NCBI GenBank assembly: GCA_043820925.1
Contig: JBDRDL010000038.1
Location: forward strand, 1-56,016
Direction: 5' to 3'
DNA length: 56,016 bases
Source: Methanobacteriota archaeon
GTDB lineage: Archaea > Hydrothermarchaeota > Hydrothermarchaeia > Hydrothermarchaeales > JACRDW01
The notes below the pieces were generated by a model that had not been told where the DNA came from, did not search any database, and saw only the letters and a list, made by a program, of their open reading frames with translations. Below are positions 26,648 to 31,945 of the stretch, piece after piece (the first letter of the stretch is position 1; each line of letters opens with the position of its first letter). The translations under genes were made by a program, and so were the position numbers.

Positions 26648-28171
26648 ATGCTCGAGCGCAACGTCGTTTTTAAAGATTTCAGAAATAAAATTAGAGTAGC
26701 CTTAGTTTATCCAAATTTCTACATTGCCGGAATGGCAAATCTGGGCTTTCAAATAATTTATGATATTTTAAATTCTCTAGAAAACGTTTACTGCGAGAGA
26801 TTTTTTCTGGATTTTGACAGAAGCTTGGAGACAAACTCGAAGCTGGGAGATTTTGATATAATCGCTTTTTCCTGGCAGTTTGAATTGGATGCGCTGAATA
26901 TTTTAAAAATCCTGCACAGAAATGGAGTTCCATTGAGAAGAGAAGAACGAAAGCAGCTCGTCATCGTGGGCGGACCGTGTGCAGTAAATCCTTACCCTCT
27001 AAAAAATTTTGTTGATGCGTTTCTAATCGGCGAGGCCGAAGCAAATTTGATTCCTTTCATCGAGAGATTTGAAATCAAGAAAAACGTTGAGAGTTTTTCG
27101 GATATAGAAGGCGTATATATTTCTGCGCTTGATAATCCTGCGAAGCGGGCGTATCTGAAAAATCTGAACAGCTATCATCCAGTCGTGCAAATAATGTCTT
27201 CCGAAACTGCATTCGGCGAAACTTTTCTGCTCGAGGTTTCTCGGGGATGCGGCAGGGGATGCAGATTCTGCATGGGCGGCTTTATTTCTCGACCGCCGAG
27301 GGAGAGAAGCATAAAAAATTTAAAAGAAATCGTGAACCGAGGCATGGCAGCAAATAATCCAAATAAGATCACTGTTTTAGGAGCTTCTGTTTCAGACTAC
27401 TCGCAGATAGACGAGCTCTGCAATTTCTTGCTTGAGAAAAATTTGCAAATTTCGATACCCTCGCTTCGTGCAGATAATTTAACCGCAGCAATAGTTAATG
27501 CGATGGTGAAGAGCGGACAGAAGAGTTTGACCCTTGCCCCGGAGTCTAGCGAGAGACTGAGAATGATGATGAACAAAAAGCTGAGCGACGAAGAAGTGAG
27601 CAGCGCAGTAAAGCTTGCGTTCGAGCACGGAATCGAAAAAATAAAGCTCTACTTCATGATAGGAATTCCGGGAGAAAAGTCCGATGATATTTATGACGTC
27701 GTGAGCCTTGTAAAGAAAATGAAAGGAAAGCTGAGGCTGAGCATAAATCCTTTCGTGCCGAAGCCGCACACCCCTTTTCAGTGGTTCGGCTTTGAAGAAA
27801 TCGCAGTGCTGAACAAAAAGAAGAAGGTGCTTCAAAAACTGCGCAGCTGCAGCTTTGAAAATTTTAAAGAAGCATTTCTTCAGGCGACGATAGCGAGGGG
27901 CGACGAGCAGCTTTCGAGAATAATTGAAAAGGCATTCTACTATGGCGGCGGCATGGGTGCCTTCAGAAGAGCTTTCAGAGAAGAAGGGATAGAATTCAAT
28001 CACTACGTGAAAGAAAGAACTCCAGACGAAGCTTTACCCTGGGATAAAATTGATGTAGGGGTGAAAAAAAAGTATTTAATAGAGGAGTACGAAAAATCTT
28101 TAAGAGGAGAAGTTTCAGGGATTTGTCAGGACAGCTGCAAAAAATGCGGAGTCTGCAATGGAGGAATTTAG
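26648..28171 (+). CDS. Radical SAM protein with N-terminal B12-binding-like domain (TIGR03960-like)
   Basis: IRVALVYPNFYIAGMANLGFQIIY and SRGCGRGCRFC (CxxxCxxC). The track start at 26357 is an antisense extension over the neighbouring gene. Confidence 0.8.
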   Translation: MLERNVVFKDFRNKIRVALVYPNFYIAGMANLGFQIIYDILNSLENVYCERFFLDFDRSLETNSKLGDFDIIAFSWQFELDALNILKILHRNGVPLRREERKQLVIVGGPCAVNPYPLKNFVDAFLIGEAEANLIPFIERFEIKKNVESFSDIEGVYISALDNPAKRAYLKNLNSYHPVVQIMSSETAFGETFLLEVSRGCGRGCRFCMGGFISRPPRERSIKNLKEIVNRGMAANNPNKITVLGASVSDYSQIDELCNFLLEKNLQISIPSLRADNLTAAIVNAMVKSGQKSLTLAPESSERLRMMMNKKLSDEEVSSAVKLAFEHGIEKIKLYFMIGIPGEKSDDIYDVVSLVKKMKGKLRLSINPFVPKPHTPFQWFGFEEIAVLNKKKKVLQKLRSCSFENFKEAFLQATIARGDEQLSRIIEKAFYYGGGMGAFRRAFREEGIEFNHYVKERTPDEALPWDKIDVGVKKKYLIEEYEKSLRGEVSGICQDSCKKCGVCNGGI

Positions 28172-28466
28172 AAAAAAATATCCAAACCTGACGAAGGAGC
28201 TTGAGAATGAGGGGATTCAAGTAGACTCTGTCAGGTCGTTGCCAGAGGAGGCAGAGAAGGCATTCCATCCCTACGAGCCGACTGTCATAGATTTTCTGCG
28301 TCGCTGCGACACAGAAGAGCAGGGACTGGAGATAATCAACTACCTGAAGAAGCGGAACGAAATCTCAGAAGAATATGCGAATGAGCTGAAGATTCAACTT
28401 CTAAAGAAGGGTATACGCAGCTTTGGACCAAAGAAAGAGAAAGGCTACTACGGGAGTTTTAGATAG
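28158..28466 (+). CDS. Small conserved archaeal protein (possibly DUF2095-like)
   Basis: 14-nt overlap with the radical SAM gene; IDFLRRCDTEEQGLEIINYLKKRNEIS...GIRSFGPKK. The family name is from memory only. Confidence 0.55.
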   Translation: MEEFRKKYPNLTKELENEGIQVDSVRSLPEEAEKAFHPYEPTVIDFLRRCDTEEQGLEIINYLKKRNEISEEYANELKIQLLKKGIRSFGPKKEKGYYGSFR

Positions 28467-29002
28467 TCAATCAGCCCCGGCGTAATTATCACTTTATCTT
28501 CGATAACCACGTATCCGTATGGTAGCACAGTTCTCTCATTTTCATTATGTACCACCTCAATCCGCCGGGTTATCTCGACGTCCTCTAACTTCGCTCCAAG
28601 ATAAATGAGCTTCGCAACCAAAGCTGCGGTGTCTATCGTCAATTGCTTCTCACCGAGGTTTCTTATTTTTGCTCCCTTTGCTTTTGCTGTGATTAATTCG
28701 CTCGTTCTCCCTTCAGGTATCTCGCAGCCCAGAATACCTCCAATAACGACTGCCTTGCTGTCAGCGAAATCAGGGGTTTTCAATTCCTCTTCTGCAAGTG
28801 GGTCAAGAATTATCAGCTTTTCGGCTTCAAATAATTTTTCAAAAGATTTCTCTGCGACTTTGCCAATCGTTGCGAGCTTTTCTTTCATTCCGCCTCTGAC
28901 GTTTGTGAAGGTAATACTCTCCCAAATCTCTGCGCAGTGCCTGTATTCCAGCCAGAGCCATTCAGATAGCTGCTCCTCACAGTTTTCGATAACAAGTTGC
29001 AT
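28448..29002 (-). CDS. Predicted SAM-dependent RNA methyltransferase (PF04252/SPOUT-like)
   Basis: N-terminus VIENCEEQLSEWLWLEYRHC and LIILDPLAEE resemble the PF04252 family. Confidence 0.6.
   Translation of the reverse strand: MQLVIENCEEQLSEWLWLEYRHCAEIWESITFTNVRGGMKEKLATIGKVAEKSFEKLFEAEKLIILDPLAEEELKTPDFADSKAVVIGGILGCEIPEGRTSELITAKAKGAKIRNLGEKQLTIDTAALVAKLIYLGAKLEDVEITRRIEVVHNENERTVLPYGYVVIEDKVIITPGLIDYLKLP
28928..28965. repeat. Direct repeat copy 1 (38 nt, inside the methyltransferase 5' coding region)
   Basis: ctctgcgcagtgcctgtattccagccagagccattcag is identical to 29635-29672. Confidence 0.95.
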
Positions 29003-29064
29003 GGTATTGCTATGGGGTAGCTATTTAAAAAGCGTTGCGAAAATGGAGACATGTAAGATATACT

Positions 29065-29274
29065 TCATACTTCACTTACAGAAACAGTTATTGGAATTTC
29101 TATCTCCTGTGGGCGCTTTTTGAAGCCGATGACAGTTATCCCTATTGGATTTTCTTTCTCATCTACCATTATCCAGACATCATCTCCGACATCTTTGGCA
29201 TATCCTTTTTTATTCTCAAAGGTAATCTCCAAAATGTCAGATCCTTTATCGTACCAGAGTTTCATCTTTCCCAT
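29065..29274 (-). CDS. DUF2283-family protein (putative antitoxin)
   Basis: MKLWYDKGSDILEITFENKKGYAKDVGDDVWIMVDEKENPIGITVIGF fits the DUF2283 pattern. Confidence 0.75.
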   Translation of the reverse strand: MGKMKLWYDKGSDILEITFENKKGYAKDVGDDVWIMVDEKENPIGITVIGFKKRPQEIEIPITVSVSEV

Positions 29275-29578
29275 ACGGTCTCGCCTTTTTTGATTCTATC
29301 TGTATAAAATGAAGTCTTAACGTATCCAATACTATTTGTTATTTGAACTACAACCAATAAATATTTTTGTGTCACTGGGATTTAGCATAAAAACGATAGT
29401 ACAGAAAGACTGTTGGAATATAGTTGCTTCTTTTGATAATTTCAGGGTTGATTAAAGTCTCCTTTATTCTACTCTCCTGATTCAACATTGCAGGTTTCTC
29501 TAAAATGTGCTTGACCGATTCTTCAGTAAGAAGGATTTTTCTTTTCAGCACGTCTTTGACTTCAAAGATTATTTTCAT
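29262..29578 (-). pseudogene. Frameshifted putative toxin partner of DUF2283 (barnase/EndoU/RelE-like family, assignment tentative)
   Basis: Frame A reads MKIIFEVKDVLKRKILLTEESVKHILEK...LYYRFYAKSQ and stops at 29372. Frame B (offset -1) opens right after a TAA and reads IPVTQKYLLVVVQITNSIGYVKTSFYTDRIKKGETVWER. Frame B ends at TGA 29262-29264, overlapping the DUF2283 ATG. Confidence 0.6.
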
Positions 29579-29634
29579 TGGCTTTACGTTTAGTTGAAGT
29601 TCTATAAAAATAGAGATGTTCAAAGCGCAGAAGA

Positions 29635-29672
29635 CTCTGCGCAGTGCCTGTATTCCAGCCAGAGCCATTCAG
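29635..29672. repeat. Direct repeat copy 2 (38 nt)
   Basis: Identical to 28928-28965. It is followed at 29675-29705 by a degenerate copy (about 24 of 30 nt) of the methyltransferase promoter region 29021-29050. Confidence 0.95.
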
Positions 29673-29721
29673 GCAACTATTACAAAAGCGTTGCTAATAT
29701 GAACACGACCTCGCTCAGATT

Positions 29722-29973
29722 TCACCCCTTCCGCACCTGCCTGAATATTTTAAGACCTTTTTCGGTTATAACATAGCCTTTCTGATTTTTCTGCGCAGCA
29801 GCTTTTGCAAACTCTCTATCTTCCAATTCTTTTAATGCCTTGCTGACCAGCGGTTCTGGAATTCGCAGCCTGTGCGAAATCTCCGCTTGCGTTGCAAAGC
29901 CAGAGCTGAGCGTCTCCAAAATTCTCAGCCTATTCTTGCCAGCTTTTATAAAACCCATGCTTGCGTAGTCCAT
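29722..29973 (-). CDS. Small winged-helix transcriptional regulator (ArsR/MarR-like)
   Basis: KNRLRILETLSSGFATQAEISHRLRIPEPLVSKALKELE. Confidence 0.7.
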   Translation of the reverse strand: MDYASMGFIKAGKNRLRILETLSSGFATQAEISHRLRIPEPLVSKALKELEDREFAKAAAQKNQKGYVITEKGLKIFRQVRKG

Positions 29974-31121
29974 TATATCTCCGCCTTTTCTATTTGCGTC
30001 AGAACATAATTTCTTATTTCTTCAACGATGGGCAGCTTTTTGTTTAGCTCTCCGTTTTTAATCAGCAGCTCGAGCATGCTTTTCATTTTAGCTCCGCACT
30101 CGCAGGTTATTCTGTTCGCATGCTTGTAATATACAACTTTTCCTTTGAGGCATTTCGGGCAGCGGTAAACTTCTTTTTTGCCGCCGAGCTTGCCTCTCTT
30201 TGCAACAGGCTTTCCTTCCATTTCTATAATATCCATTGCAAAGTCTATAGTTTTTGCATTGCTTATGCTTGTTCCAACTCCGAAGCCATCTGCATTGCTC
30301 AGCTCCCTGATTGCTTCCTCATCAATGCTGCCGGAGACGATTATCTTGACATTTTTAAAGCCCCGAACATCCAGCTCCCACCTCACTTCGTCGACTATTT
30401 TTTTCATGTTTCCTTTTCTGGAGCCGGGAGTATCCAGTCTGACTCCGTGCAATTTTTTCAACGCTTTAGCTGCCATAATTGCTTCAGTCTTTTCGTCATA
30501 GTAGGTGTCGACGAGGGCAATTCTCGGTATGTTTTTTTCCATGACTTCATCGAAGTATTGCCATGCTTTCACCTGGTCTCCGACAGTGATAATCAGGGCA
30601 TGCGGCATGGTTCCGGTAGATTTTTTGCCGACGAACTTTTCTGCAGCGATGCCTGAGAAACCGTCCACTCCTCCAATATACGCCACTCGGTCTATCATCG
30701 GAGCAATAGCAGGATGCATCCTTCGAATTCCAAAGCTGATGATAAGTTTATCATCTGCAAGCTTGCGCATTCTCGCTGCCTTTGTTGCTATTCCTGAAGC
30801 CTGGCAGAGGAAGCCCAGAAGAGGCGTTTCAAGCTCGCAGAACTCCTCATACTTTCCTTCAACTCTAAAAACCGGTTCCCCGGAATAGAACAGGCTGCCT
30901 TCAGGCATTGAATAAACATCGCATTTGTAACCTTCAAACAGCTGCGCAGCCTCCTCAACGCCTGCCAGAATGCCCCAGTTATAGGGCAGAGAGCTTGCAA
31001 TTACCTCCATAACAACGTTTTTGCTGATTCTTTTCGTTTGCAGGATTTCTTTTGTTCTTGCGAAGTATATATCTGTGGTTTTACCTTTTTTTATCTCCTC
31101 TGGGGTTGCTACATGAAACAT
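29973..31121 (-). CDS. Nicotinate phosphoribosyltransferase, archaeal type with C-terminal zinc ribbon
   Basis: TDIYFARTKEIL, GTMPHALI, VRLDTPGSRKG, CPKC...CEC. Start set at MFHVATPEE. Confidence 0.85.
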   Translation of the reverse strand: MFHVATPEEIKKGKTTDIYFARTKEILQTKRISKNVVMEVIASSLPYNWGILAGVEEAAQLFEGYKCDVYSMPEGSLFYSGEPVFRVEGKYEEFCELETPLLGFLCQASGIATKAARMRKLADDKLIISFGIRRMHPAIAPMIDRVAYIGGVDGFSGIAAEKFVGKKSTGTMPHALIITVGDQVKAWQYFDEVMEKNIPRIALVDTYYDEKTEAIMAAKALKKLHGVRLDTPGSRKGNMKKIVDEVRWELDVRGFKNVKIIVSGSIDEEAIRELSNADGFGVGTSISNAKTIDFAMDIIEMEGKPVAKRGKLGGKKEVYRCPKCLKGKVVYYKHANRITCECGAKMKSMLELLIKNGELNKKLPIVEEIRNYVLTQIEKAEI

Positions 31122-31159
31122 GACTAGATTTAAGTAGGCATAACAATATAACACTTTTC

Positions 31160-31945
31160 ATGAGGGTTGCTCTCATCGGCTGTGGGGCGATTGGAAGCAT
31201 AATCGCAAAGGCGATAGCAGATGGAGCAGTTTCTGCCGAGCTGCAATTGCTCTACGACGCTGACAGAAAAGCTGCAGAAAGAGTTTTAGGGATTTTTAAA
31301 AAAAAGCCGAGAATAGCCGAGGGCATCGAAAAAATTTTAAATTCTAATGCAGATGTCGTGGTAGAGGCTGCCTCGCAGGAAGCGGTTAAATCTTTTGCTG
31401 CAAGAATTCTGGGCTCAAAAAAAAGCATAATGATAATGAGCGCAGGTGCCCTTGCGGATGAAAAATTTTTTGATAAAATTAAAAAAATTGCAGGAAAAAA
31501 TAAAGTGAAAATTTATTTGCCGTCAGGAGCGATAGGCGGCTTGGATGCTCTTAAGTCTGCCTCTGCAGCCAGGATTTATGAAGTTACCCTGACAACCACG
31601 AAGCCTCCGAATGCGCTGAAGGGAGCAGAGAAAATAAGAGAGAAAGCAGTTTTGTACGAGGGCAGCGCTAGAGAGGCGATTAAAAAATTCCCTGCAAACG
31701 TTAACGTTGCCGTTGCGCTCAGCCTTGCAGGAATAGGAGTGAAAAAAACTAAAGTAAGAGTTGTAGCAGACCCGGGCAGCGACAAAAACATACACGAGGT
31801 TTTTGCGAGAGGAGATTTTGGAGAGTTTAAATTCAGAGTTGAGAATGTACCCTCGCCGCAGAATCCCAGGACGAGCTATCTTGCGGCGCTGTCTGCAATT
31901 GCAACGTTAAAAAAAATAACATCGCATGTAGAGATAGGCACATAA
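31160..31945 (+). CDS. nadX: L-aspartate dehydrogenase
   Basis: MRVALIGCGAIGS Rossmann N-terminus, SGAIGGLDAL, and a family-typical C-terminus. Confidence 0.85.
   Translation: MRVALIGCGAIGSIIAKAIADGAVSAELQLLYDADRKAAERVLGIFKKKPRIAEGIEKILNSNADVVVEAASQEAVKSFAARILGSKKSIMIMSAGALADEKFFDKIKKIAGKNKVKIYLPSGAIGGLDALKSASAARIYEVTLTTTKPPNALKGAEKIREKAVLYEGSAREAIKKFPANVNVAVALSLAGIGVKKTKVRVVADPGSDKNIHEVFARGDFGEFKFRVENVPSPQNPRTSYLAALSAIATLKKITSHVEIGT

Follow-up and report, generated by a model that had tools for sequence, protein, structure and literature searches.

The locus that we have analyzed raises a question of molecular evolution: How did a small pair of genes resembling a toxin-antitoxin module come to be enclosed between two copies of the 5' region of a neighboring methyltransferase gene? 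It lies in a window of 56,016 nucleotides (the whole of the stretch analyzed, on contig JBDRDL010000038.1) from an uncultured groundwater archaeon, the genome of which was assembled from a metagenome and amounts to 1.36 Mb. How selfish toxin-antitoxin modules enter chromosomes is an open question, and the footprint preserved at this locus bears on it.

The target gene encodes an SFM1-like SPOUT methyltransferase of 184 amino acids (28448..29002, minus strand; PF04252, E 1.9e-42). It is an intact open reading frame (ORF) with orthologues of 80-97% identity, and its downstream neighbors, the DUF2095 and radical-SAM genes, are conserved. Codons 13-25 of this gene (EWLWLEYRHCAE) constitute copy A (28928..28965, minus strand) of a perfect direct repeat of 38 nt, R (CTCTGCGCAGTGCCTGTATTCCAGCCAGAGCCATTCAG), while copy B, R' (29635..29672, minus strand), is a non-coding relic of the same codons. 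The preliminary description had reported both the identity of the two copies, which holds at 38 of 38 positions, and their position around a DUF2283 gene and its toxin-like partner, which we find at 29065..29274 and 29262..29578, both on the minus strand. It had also considered that R could be part of a wider dispersed family; this possibility was rejected, because the whole 1.36-Mb genome contains two copies only. No third copy is present in the window even when up to three mismatches are allowed, and none of 100 shuffles of the window produced two matches (0/100).

The repetition extends beyond R, with a different degree of conservation. In the functional copy, R is preceded by a segment, X (28966..29015, minus strand), delimited by the difference in repeat offsets and comprising the ATG and codons 1-12 together with a leader of 13 nt, and then by P (29016..29050, minus strand), a promoter of the native type that is found also 5' of the cassette-free orthologue of L057. 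The TATA element of P, TTTTTAAATA at 29022-29031, lies about 23 nt ahead of the methyltransferase ATG, so that the predicted mRNA would be leaderless. In the relic, a second version of this promoter, P' (29672..29706, minus strand), is joined directly to R' and matches P at 27 of 35 positions (77%), a recurrence slightly longer than the 24 of 30 nt originally noted; the deletion that accompanies it measures 51 nt instead of about 53, as the offset is 707 for R and 656 for the promoter, and it takes out of copy B the leader, the start codon and codons 1-12 (28966-29015). The different histories of these two parts of the repeat had not been seen in that earlier reading. The TATA-like element of P', TTTGTAATA at 29678-29686, is weakened with respect to TTTAAATA, and the 3' half of P', AATAGTTGCCTGAA, is identical to the native promoter of the orthologue in L041; P' matches the L041 type, and P the L057 type. 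The left edge of P' falls where the region 3' of the winged-helix gene in G001 ceases to be homologous. R and R' have in common substitutions of the window lineage which four other lineages lack. Scanning the relic against Rfam for non-coding RNA gave only chance-level matches. We also set aside a long ORF that begins at an ATG within the relic (98 aa here and 135 aa in L056), because the relic TATA lies merely 9 nt 5' of this ATG and the chance of an open 30-codon extension is about 0.2 by our own estimate. The toxin gene of L056 has been called from an ATG within the relic; relic gene starts with promoters and ATGs 5' of such cassettes can misdirect gene callers, a point of relevance for annotation.

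What lies between the two copies is a portable unit, since its core (29052..29626, minus strand), comprising a promoter, the toxin-like gene and the DUF2283 antitoxin gene, is present with 78% nucleotide identity in the congener G001 (C42:1331-1902), at an unrelated site between a VIT1/rubrerythrin-type gene and tRNA-Ile that has no flanking repeats. The antitoxin gene encodes 69 aa (PF10049, E 1.9e-8) and has a 6-nt deletion at its 3' end in comparison with L056 and G001. The toxin-like gene is frameshifted relative to the intact versions of these two relatives, which encode 104 aa (G001) and, from an MKIIF start, 105 aa (L056); a run of C residues has lost 1 nt (GGG at 29377-29379 of the plus strand, hence CCC here vs. 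CCCC in L056), which leaves the gene as an ORF of 68 aa plus one of 37 aa. The two genes are small, co-directional and overlapping, they occur as a pair also in G001 and L056, and the toxin-like gene stands immediately 5' of DUF2283 in the loci of other relatives that we inspected (L059, L070-L073, and L083). By its gene layout the cassette would fit a type II toxin-antitoxin module, with a weak assignment of the toxin family: the Pfam match of the G001 homologue to PBECR2 nuclease (E 0.0023) is below cut-off, sequence searches of NCBIfam and PDB returned nothing relevant for the toxin, the PDB matches being spurious, and a single-sequence AlphaFold model was unusable (mean pLDDT 39). A putative BRE/TATA-like promoter of the cassette itself, TTGAACATCTCTATTTTTATAG (29602..29623, minus strand), has its TATA about 24 nt ahead of the toxin ATG and is kept in sequence and position 5' of the G001 cassette, where the relic is absent. 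Given this conserved promoter, the relic promoter, to which a possible role in driving the toxin gene had been attributed initially, would not be needed for its expression. The ORF listing and Pfam searches indicate just the two cassette genes between the repeats, without any ORF of recombinase size, and the list of inverted repeats contains no terminal inverted repeats at the cassette ends. For this reason, and because the duplication is of at least 38 nt, we discarded a DNA transposon or MITE as the vehicle.

Among relatives, duplication and cassette occur together. The closest strain, L056 (JGI sample 3300037880, an independent assembly with 98% nucleotide identity), shows the same architecture, with 37 of 38 positions conserved in the repeat, whereas L041, L057, L058, and G001 have neither element; these cassette-free relatives display a single P-X-R and a different upstream neighbor, so that the case of a duplication without the cassette, which would have spoken against an insertion scar, is found in none of them. 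The upstream neighbor in the window is a gene for a winged-helix regulator of 83 aa (29722..29973, minus strand; HTH_45, E 1.3e-7) that lies outside the cassette, and its G001 orthologue (93% identity) adjoins nadX and nadC, not the methyltransferase gene. In fact, the neighbor upstream of the methyltransferase gene varies across all sampled lineages, being the cassette, a ferredoxin, a GTPase, a 129-aa AT-rich gene, or RadC. For this reason an empty junction between regulator and methyltransferase, as envisaged in the preliminary description, was not found in G001, 40 relatives, one metagenome, one genome and the protein collection; the sole close strain, L056, is filled at this locus. The closest background is that of L041, with DUF2095 and radical-SAM genes 96-100% identical. 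The donor arrangement, with the cassette directly 5' of P and no relic, was not observed anywhere in the sample. The methyltransferase gene itself is a mosaic with respect to all relatives, in which no clean boundary between donor and recipient can be fixed; its history is consequently not readable in an unambiguous way, and the idea of an imported tract within it was dropped.

The same footprint recurs at other cassettes. At least eight toxin-antitoxin cassettes of this genome, including the present one, are bracketed by exact repeats of 30-53 bp that correspond to the end of the neighboring gene, and the eight repeat pairs differ in sequence and length, with no common core or motif. Bracketing repeats of at least 20 bp accompany 9 of 32 PIN genes vs. 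23 of 600 random positions. Across relatives of the same order, about 10 repeat pairs are present in 30 DUF2283 loci vs. 3 in 30 epimerase loci, and two of the latter three bracket toxin-antitoxin cassettes as well. Two of the sister loci have precise empty sites in close strains: at C2, L138 and L139 are without exactly 730 nt, equivalent to the cassette plus one repeat, and at C68, L143-L145 are empty while L142 is filled. A perfect core with diverged flanks, as seen at the present locus, is found also at C2, C13, C85, L140, and L072. Empty sites were sought as well for cassettes between repeats in other genera (L059, L071, and L083), where collinearity with the congeners breaks down on the far side. 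With its eight cassettes of one footprint, two precise empty sites and several mosaic relics, the genome offers a compact natural data set on how such modules enter chromosomes.

On this evidence, we consider it probable that the locus is the insertion scar of a toxin-antitoxin cassette that entered with duplication of the methyltransferase 5' region. The preliminary description had recognized such a scar of insertion or duplication, and its reading is strengthened by the co-occurrence of cassette and duplication, the portability of the unit in G001 and the precise empty sites at two sister loci. The two-gene cassette would have entered the 5' region of the methyltransferase gene without a recombinase, and its insertion would have duplicated the promoter together with codons 1-25, start codon included; in P-X-R, the copy downstream, the gene would have stayed intact. 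Later, a stretch of 51 nt with the start codon would have been deleted from the upstream relic, probably through microhomology between two CTGAA motifs, one of which stands at the 3' end of X and the other after the TATA box in promoters of the L041 type. Expression of the cassette would have depended on its own promoter, the toxin gene having been frameshifted afterwards in this genome.

How the duplication arose is a separate matter, for which a homology-dependent path has, in our judgment, about an even chance. The presence of a perfect R beside a diverged promoter argues against one simple duplication, and on sequence grounds would favor recombination between diverged alleles over a plain duplication by staggered cuts. 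The match of P' to the promoter type of L041, the closest background, and of P to that of L057 would agree with this path, as would the recurrence of perfect cores with diverged flanks at other loci. As the likeliest route, we infer that the incoming DNA may have carried the cassette beside a diverged copy of the methyltransferase 5' region; recombination with the resident gene would then have taken place within the most conserved block, in the manner of a circle that integrates by one crossover. The outcome would be the resident P' upstream, the incoming P-X ahead of the gene and the identical core R on both sides, and a reverse crossover between the repeats would remove the cassette precisely. 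The data suggest, in more general terms, that the homology arms are the start or end of the neighboring gene, with crossover in its most conserved block. The lineage-specific substitutions common to R and R' are not predicted by a simple crossover between diverged alleles, unless gene conversion is added.

Those common substitutions are instead what would be expected if both copies came from one genome, as in the alternative of a long target duplication without donor homology, by which the cassette was ligated into a break with staggered ends of about 123 nt, fill-in synthesis copied P-X-R, and the relic then decayed. The variation of repeat length by locus (30-53 bp exact) agrees with this alternative too, being similar to that of published restriction-modification cases, and so do the sharp edges of the repeats at C68, C23, and C20, beyond which there is no residual similarity. 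Yet we judge it rather unlikely here. Uniform decay does not yield 0 mismatches in 38 positions beside 8 in 35 (38/38 vs. 27/35, Fisher p ~0.002 by our own arithmetic), and the relic promoter shares with the native promoter of another lineage a block of 14 nt, 10 of which are inside P' proper. Moreover, the relic tail of L140 is of a different allele from the gene copy, and the repeat at C15 completes, in frame, the 3' end of another vapC gene that has diverged, a result not to be expected of blind copying.

Given that the upstream neighbor of the methyltransferase gene is different in each lineage, rearrangement could have contributed to the present arrangement. In its strong form, this explanation holds that the joining of the block of NAD genes and regulator to the methyltransferase block left behind an older 5' fragment, with the cassette being merely located at the junction; the different order of the NAD gene cluster in G000 and G001 and the relic of a nicotinamidase-like (isochorismatase-family) gene in G001 speak for such reshuffling. 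As a full account we regard it as improbable, because it leaves unexplained why relic and intact copy flank the cassette to within 10 nt, and why seven other cassettes are bracketed in the same way, two of them with precise empty sites in collinear strains. Integration at specific sites has even less to recommend it. Perfect repeats and precise empty sites at sister loci could represent the attL and attR of an integron-type cassette, or of a non-autonomous element that a tyrosine or serine recombinase mobilizes in trans, but the eight repeat pairs differ in length and have no common core, and the repeats just copy whatever gene end adjoins the cassette. A GTTRRRY core and attC-like inverted repeats are absent from both junctions, and the ORFs listed for 27000-31500 comprise the cassette genes and their known neighbors, without an obvious recombinase gene; this makes the explanation very unlikely. 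Finally, a chimeric assembly of two strain variants, conceivable for a metagenome in which contig ends overlap by 141 bp as expected of a k-mer graph assembler, is practically ruled out by the independent assembly L056, which derives from another sample and agrees in structure while differing at individual nucleotides, as well as by the repeat of 38 bp being shorter than that overlap, presumably the k-mer of the assembler.

In a wider perspective, we make a tentative proposal, possible though on balance doubtful: the toxin-antitoxin cassettes of this order may form a class of mobile units without enzymes, which travel as circles or fragments carrying 30-120 bp of a host gene start or end as homing arm and rely on the homologous recombination of the host to move in and out. 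Their addictive cargo would punish loss after excision, and repeated cycles would keep the core identical while the flanks diverge. If true, this would give a general and previously unformulated answer to how toxin-antitoxin systems get into chromosomes.

Several known systems offer a comparison for our findings. Campbell-type integration and excision of circular DNA by a single crossover, as well as homology-facilitated illegitimate recombination in transformable bacteria, need no enzyme of the element; they leave a direct duplication of the homology arm around the insert, and the reverse crossover restores the empty site. The arms considered here are only about 30-120 bp long, and circle and uptake route would be hypothetical in these archaea. 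Integron cassettes and archaeal attC clusters resemble our case in comprising small toxin-antitoxin cassettes, often bearing a promoter, that are gained and lost as units; in contrast with them, the present locus shows no attC, conserved core or integron integrase, and its repeats copy the neighboring gene. The ccdO157 module occupies the variable folA-apaH spacer of Escherichia coli (Mine et al. 2009, as cited in PMC3184786 and PMC7167474). From the passages of these articles that deal with it, the likeness to our cassette lies in the polymorphism of presence and absence at a fixed intergenic site, the decay by toxin inactivation and an insertion mechanism that is not known; the same passages invoke REP elements and describe no duplication of a gene 5' end with its promoter. 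The original work on ccdO157 is said to have recorded a duplicated target sequence.

The nearest parallel is provided by restriction-modification systems, for which insertion with long target duplication has been published (Furuta, Abe and Kobayashi 2010, PMC2853133; the same footprint is attributed there to Nobusato et al. 2000, Gene 259:99). These addictive units have no mobility gene and are flanked by direct repeats of more than 30 bp, which have no further copies in the genome and differ among loci in length and sequence; in a related strain the empty site holds a single repeat. A translation start or stop is often included in the repeat, whereby the target gene is preserved, and double-strand breakage by the restriction-modification system itself has been proposed as the cause (PMC2853133). 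The locus studied here shares the flanking repeat above 30 bp (a perfect one of 38 bp plus the adjoining 35 nt at 77%), the lack of transposase, integrase or mobile element in the unit, and the uniqueness of the repeat within the genome together with its variation among loci. A precise empty site with a single repeat is seen at the sister loci C2 and C68; at the present locus, the relatives without the cassette have one P-X-R next to a different upstream neighbor. The locus differs from the published cases in its archaeal host, in the promoter contained within the duplicated piece, and in the relic, which is a mosaic of perfect core, diverged promoter and 51-nt deletion; the recombination between diverged alleles that this mosaic suggests has not been proposed in the restriction-modification papers. 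Since the cargo is a type II toxin-antitoxin pair and not a restriction-modification system, we consider our locus a variant, rather than a strict member, of the published class, and the data carry a mechanism so far published only for restriction-modification systems over to toxin-antitoxin pairs and to the archaea.

The SFM1-like SPOUT methyltransferase gene (28448-29002, 184 aa; PF04252, E 1.9e-42) shares the minus strand with a gene for a DUF2283 protein, the antitoxin (29065-29274; PF10049, E 1.9e-8), an ORF (29372-29578) for the N-terminal portion of a toxin-like gene product, and an ORF for a winged-helix regulator (29722-29973), beyond which lies a phosphoribosyltransferase gene. The preliminary description held that the DUF2283 and toxin-like genes, here called the cassette, are enclosed by a perfect 38-bp direct repeat and a recurring methyltransferase promoter region, and both observations stand: 28928-28965 equals 29635-29672 at every position, and 29016-29050 matches 29672-29706 at 27 of 35. 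Even when three mismatches are allowed, the window contains no third copy of the 38-mer (0 in 100 shuffles), and only these two exist in the whole 1.36-Mb assembly, which rules out a wider dispersed repeat family. Read in gene orientation, the regulator gene is followed by a relic promoter (P', 35 nt), a non-coding relic of the repeat (R', 38 nt) and the cassette; then come the native-type promoter (P, 35 nt), a 50-nt segment missing from the relic (a 13-nt leader, the ATG and 12 codons), the repeat within the gene (R, 38 nt) and the rest of the methyltransferase gene. The TATA box in P, TTTTTAAATA, is of a good archaeal type and lies about 23 nt upstream of the ATG, a distance from which the methyltransferase mRNA is predicted to be leaderless.

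The duplication is not an artefact, since L056, a contig of 3.4 kb obtained from a different sample (JGI 3300037880), is 98% identical and repeats the whole arrangement with a single mismatch in R'. At greater distance, four orthologous loci, with methyltransferases 87% (L041), 85% (L057), 83% (the congener genome G001) and 80% (L058) identical, have the promoter and gene start only once and lack the cassette; the duplication is therefore found only beside the cassette, which supports the earlier reading of a scar left by insertion. That reading had called for an empty junction between regulator and methyltransferase, of which no clean example exists among the lineages reached, because each lineage has a different gene immediately upstream of the methyltransferase: L041 has a GTPase there, G001 a ferredoxin, L058 RadC and L057 an AT-rich gene of 129 aa (L057:859-1248) that has no family match. 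The position upstream of the promoter appears to be an accessory-gene hotspot. The methyltransferase gene itself deviates over its 3' half (28460-28760), in the window and L056, at positions where all four other lineages agree; its neighbours, the DUF2095 and radical SAM genes, match L041 at 96-100% identity. The tract looks imported or fast-evolving. The NAD-biosynthesis neighbourhood (29973-31945) is also rearranged between the two congeners: here the shared promoter and the winged-helix gene are separated by a phosphoribosyltransferase gene of 393 aa, whereas on the G001 contig (L022, C148) the winged-helix gene comes first and nadC next, with a spacer containing the relic (…NCVASVSE…) of what we read as a nicotinamidase-like gene of the isochorismatase family, a gene found on contig C35 in the present assembly.

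The cassette behaves as a portable unit. Its gene pair recurs in the congeneric groundwater MAG G001, where tRNA-Ile lies on one side and a VIT1/rubrerythrin-type gene on the other and no repeats flank it; the G001 antitoxin is 91% and the toxin 68% identical. DNA homology between the two cassettes (78% identity) spans 29052-29626, beginning 8 nt past the end of R' and ending 1 nt short of P. This span contains TTGAACATCTCTATTTTTATAG, which resembles a promoter, precedes the toxin ATG by about 24 nt and is kept in G001, suggesting that the cassette brings its own putative promoter; the relic promoter (TATA TTTGTAATA), earlier thought perhaps to drive the toxin gene, would not be required. Where L056 and G001 read CCCC, the toxin gene of the window is one C short (plus-strand GGG, 29377-29379), which splits its reading frame into ORFs of 68 and 37 aa; the antitoxin gene lacks 6 nt at its end. 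The toxin's only family match, below threshold, is PBECR2 (Barnase/EndoU/colicin/RelE-like nucleases); neither NCBIfam nor PDB sequences nor a structure modelled from the single sequence helped to identify it. In L056 the toxin (368-775) is called from an ATG within the relic repeat, giving 135 aa with an N-terminal extension of 30 residues, probably an annotation artefact owed to the relic.

The relic is a mosaic whose two halves differ in history. R' matches R at 38 of 38 positions and P' matches P at 27 of 35; by our own arithmetic, all eight mismatches would fall in P' under random placement with a probability of about 0.002. P matches the native promoter of L057, and the 3' half of P' (AATAGTTGCCTGAA) equals that of L041. 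By its DUF2095 and radical SAM genes L041 is otherwise the closest background, though the body of its methyltransferase gene is only 70-90% identical to the window. The motif CTGAA follows the TATA box in the L041-type promoter and also opens R; a deletion from CTGAA to CTGAA would remove exactly the segment missing from the relic. Judging from substitutions common to R and R' and found in no other lineage (CTGGAATACAGG), the R core was either duplicated within the lineage of the window or homogenised later.

The methyltransferase locus gains weight as one of eight instances within a single genome. Scanning the assembly for exact local direct repeats, with enclosed genes checked against Pfam, we found that a copied end of an adjacent gene brackets seven further cassettes. 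Exact repeats of 40 bp enclose a VapBC cassette at C2:6565-7334, copying the 5' end of an epimerase gene from its ATG, and a DUF433/DUF5615 cassette at C68:15077-15844, copying the 5' end of a paralogous epimerase gene (35% identical). At C13:2273-3136 (VapBC, 30 bp exact) the start of a GPN GTPase gene is copied together with its promoter, which has diverged. At C85:1458-2863 an MNT-type nucleotidyltransferase gene and a partner without Pfam match are bracketed by 53 bp exact, more than 130 bp imperfect, copied from the promoter and beginning of the next gene downstream; in our own reading, the product of that gene is predicted to begin with a Tat-like signal. Gene 3' ends are copied at C23:18225-19316 (UPF0175/DUF3368, 33 bp exact), at C20:27836-29347 (ParE and PIN_3, 32 bp exact, from the PIN_3 gene, the second copy lying just beyond a MazF-like gene) and at C15:2861-3562 (44 bp exact, a 3' end common to two tandem vapC genes that have diverged). 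No motif is common to the bracketing repeats. Such a repeat, of at least 20 bp, accompanies 9 of 32 PIN genes, as against 23 of 600 random positions. The assembly also contains a CRISPR array (C47:4290-5490, 30-nt repeat GTTTGAATAGGACTAGTGTAGTATTGAAAT, period 65-68), a dispersed hairpin repeat (GGAAGCTGGC…GCCATCTTCC) on several contigs, and many contig ends overlapping by exactly 141 bp, an assembler signature.

Two of these cassettes are presence/absence polymorphisms with precise borders. The C2 site is empty in L138 (JAGUVZ010000118.1, ~97% nucleotide identity) and L139 (JASEJI010000023.1, ~94%), where the oligosaccharyltransferase (STT3/AglB) gene leads directly into the epimerase gene, and the gap in the alignment, 730 nt, corresponds exactly to the cassette and one repeat. 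L140/L141, a strain further off (~92%), carries the cassette, 93% identical, and in L140 a perfect repeat of 39 bp is followed by 10 nt of relic representing an allele unlike the gene copy. The C68 site is filled in L142 and empty in L143 (JAIYSP010000056.1), L144 and L145 (~89%). The L139 epimerase gene is split by the gene caller into 63 and 244 aa. Among 30 DUF2283 loci drawn from 35 genomes within the order, about 10 pairs of repeats, 22-68 bp long, surround or adjoin toxin-antitoxin cassettes; 30 epimerase loci yielded three, two of them bracketing such cassettes. Several DUF2283-cassette repeats in two relatives (L070 in G003, L083 in G020) contain a common coding end, …KFKHSVKWW*, and conserved gene ends may be recurrent repeat cores in tandem cassette arrays.

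How did a unit flanked by a duplicated gene start arise? Incoming DNA might have carried the cassette adjoining a diverged copy of the target and recombined with the target in its most conserved block, by a Campbell-like single crossover or by homology-anchored illegitimate joining. Such homology-dependent import, we infer, predicts a perfect core with diverged flanks, and a perfect core next to diverged homologous flanks is seen at the methyltransferase locus, C2, C13, C85, L140 and L072. The end of R (GCACTGCGCAGAG) resembles GCAGTGTGCGAG, 7 nt upstream of the G001 cassette, only a hint of a possible trace of circle closure. Units of this kind, as at C2 and C68, are gained and lost precisely. 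A staggered break duplicating the target is a rather improbable alternative: were a blind duplication simply to decay evenly, an intact core and diverged flanks would not be expected side by side. Site-specific recombination is unlikely; neither a mobility gene nor a shared core was found at these cassettes.

The footprint matches an event type known from restriction-modification systems, described as "insertion with long target duplication" by Furuta et al. 2010 (PMC2853133), who cite Nobusato et al. 2000. There the repeats are unique, variable and longer than 30 bp, often spanning translation starts or stops; the inserted units carry no mobility genes, sister strains show empty sites, and the insertions proceed by a mechanism still unknown (PMC2853133). 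How toxin-antitoxin systems integrate is unelucidated according to a 2020 review (PMC7167474). The present event is a variant of this type: its cargo and host domain are new, and the relic is a mosaic.
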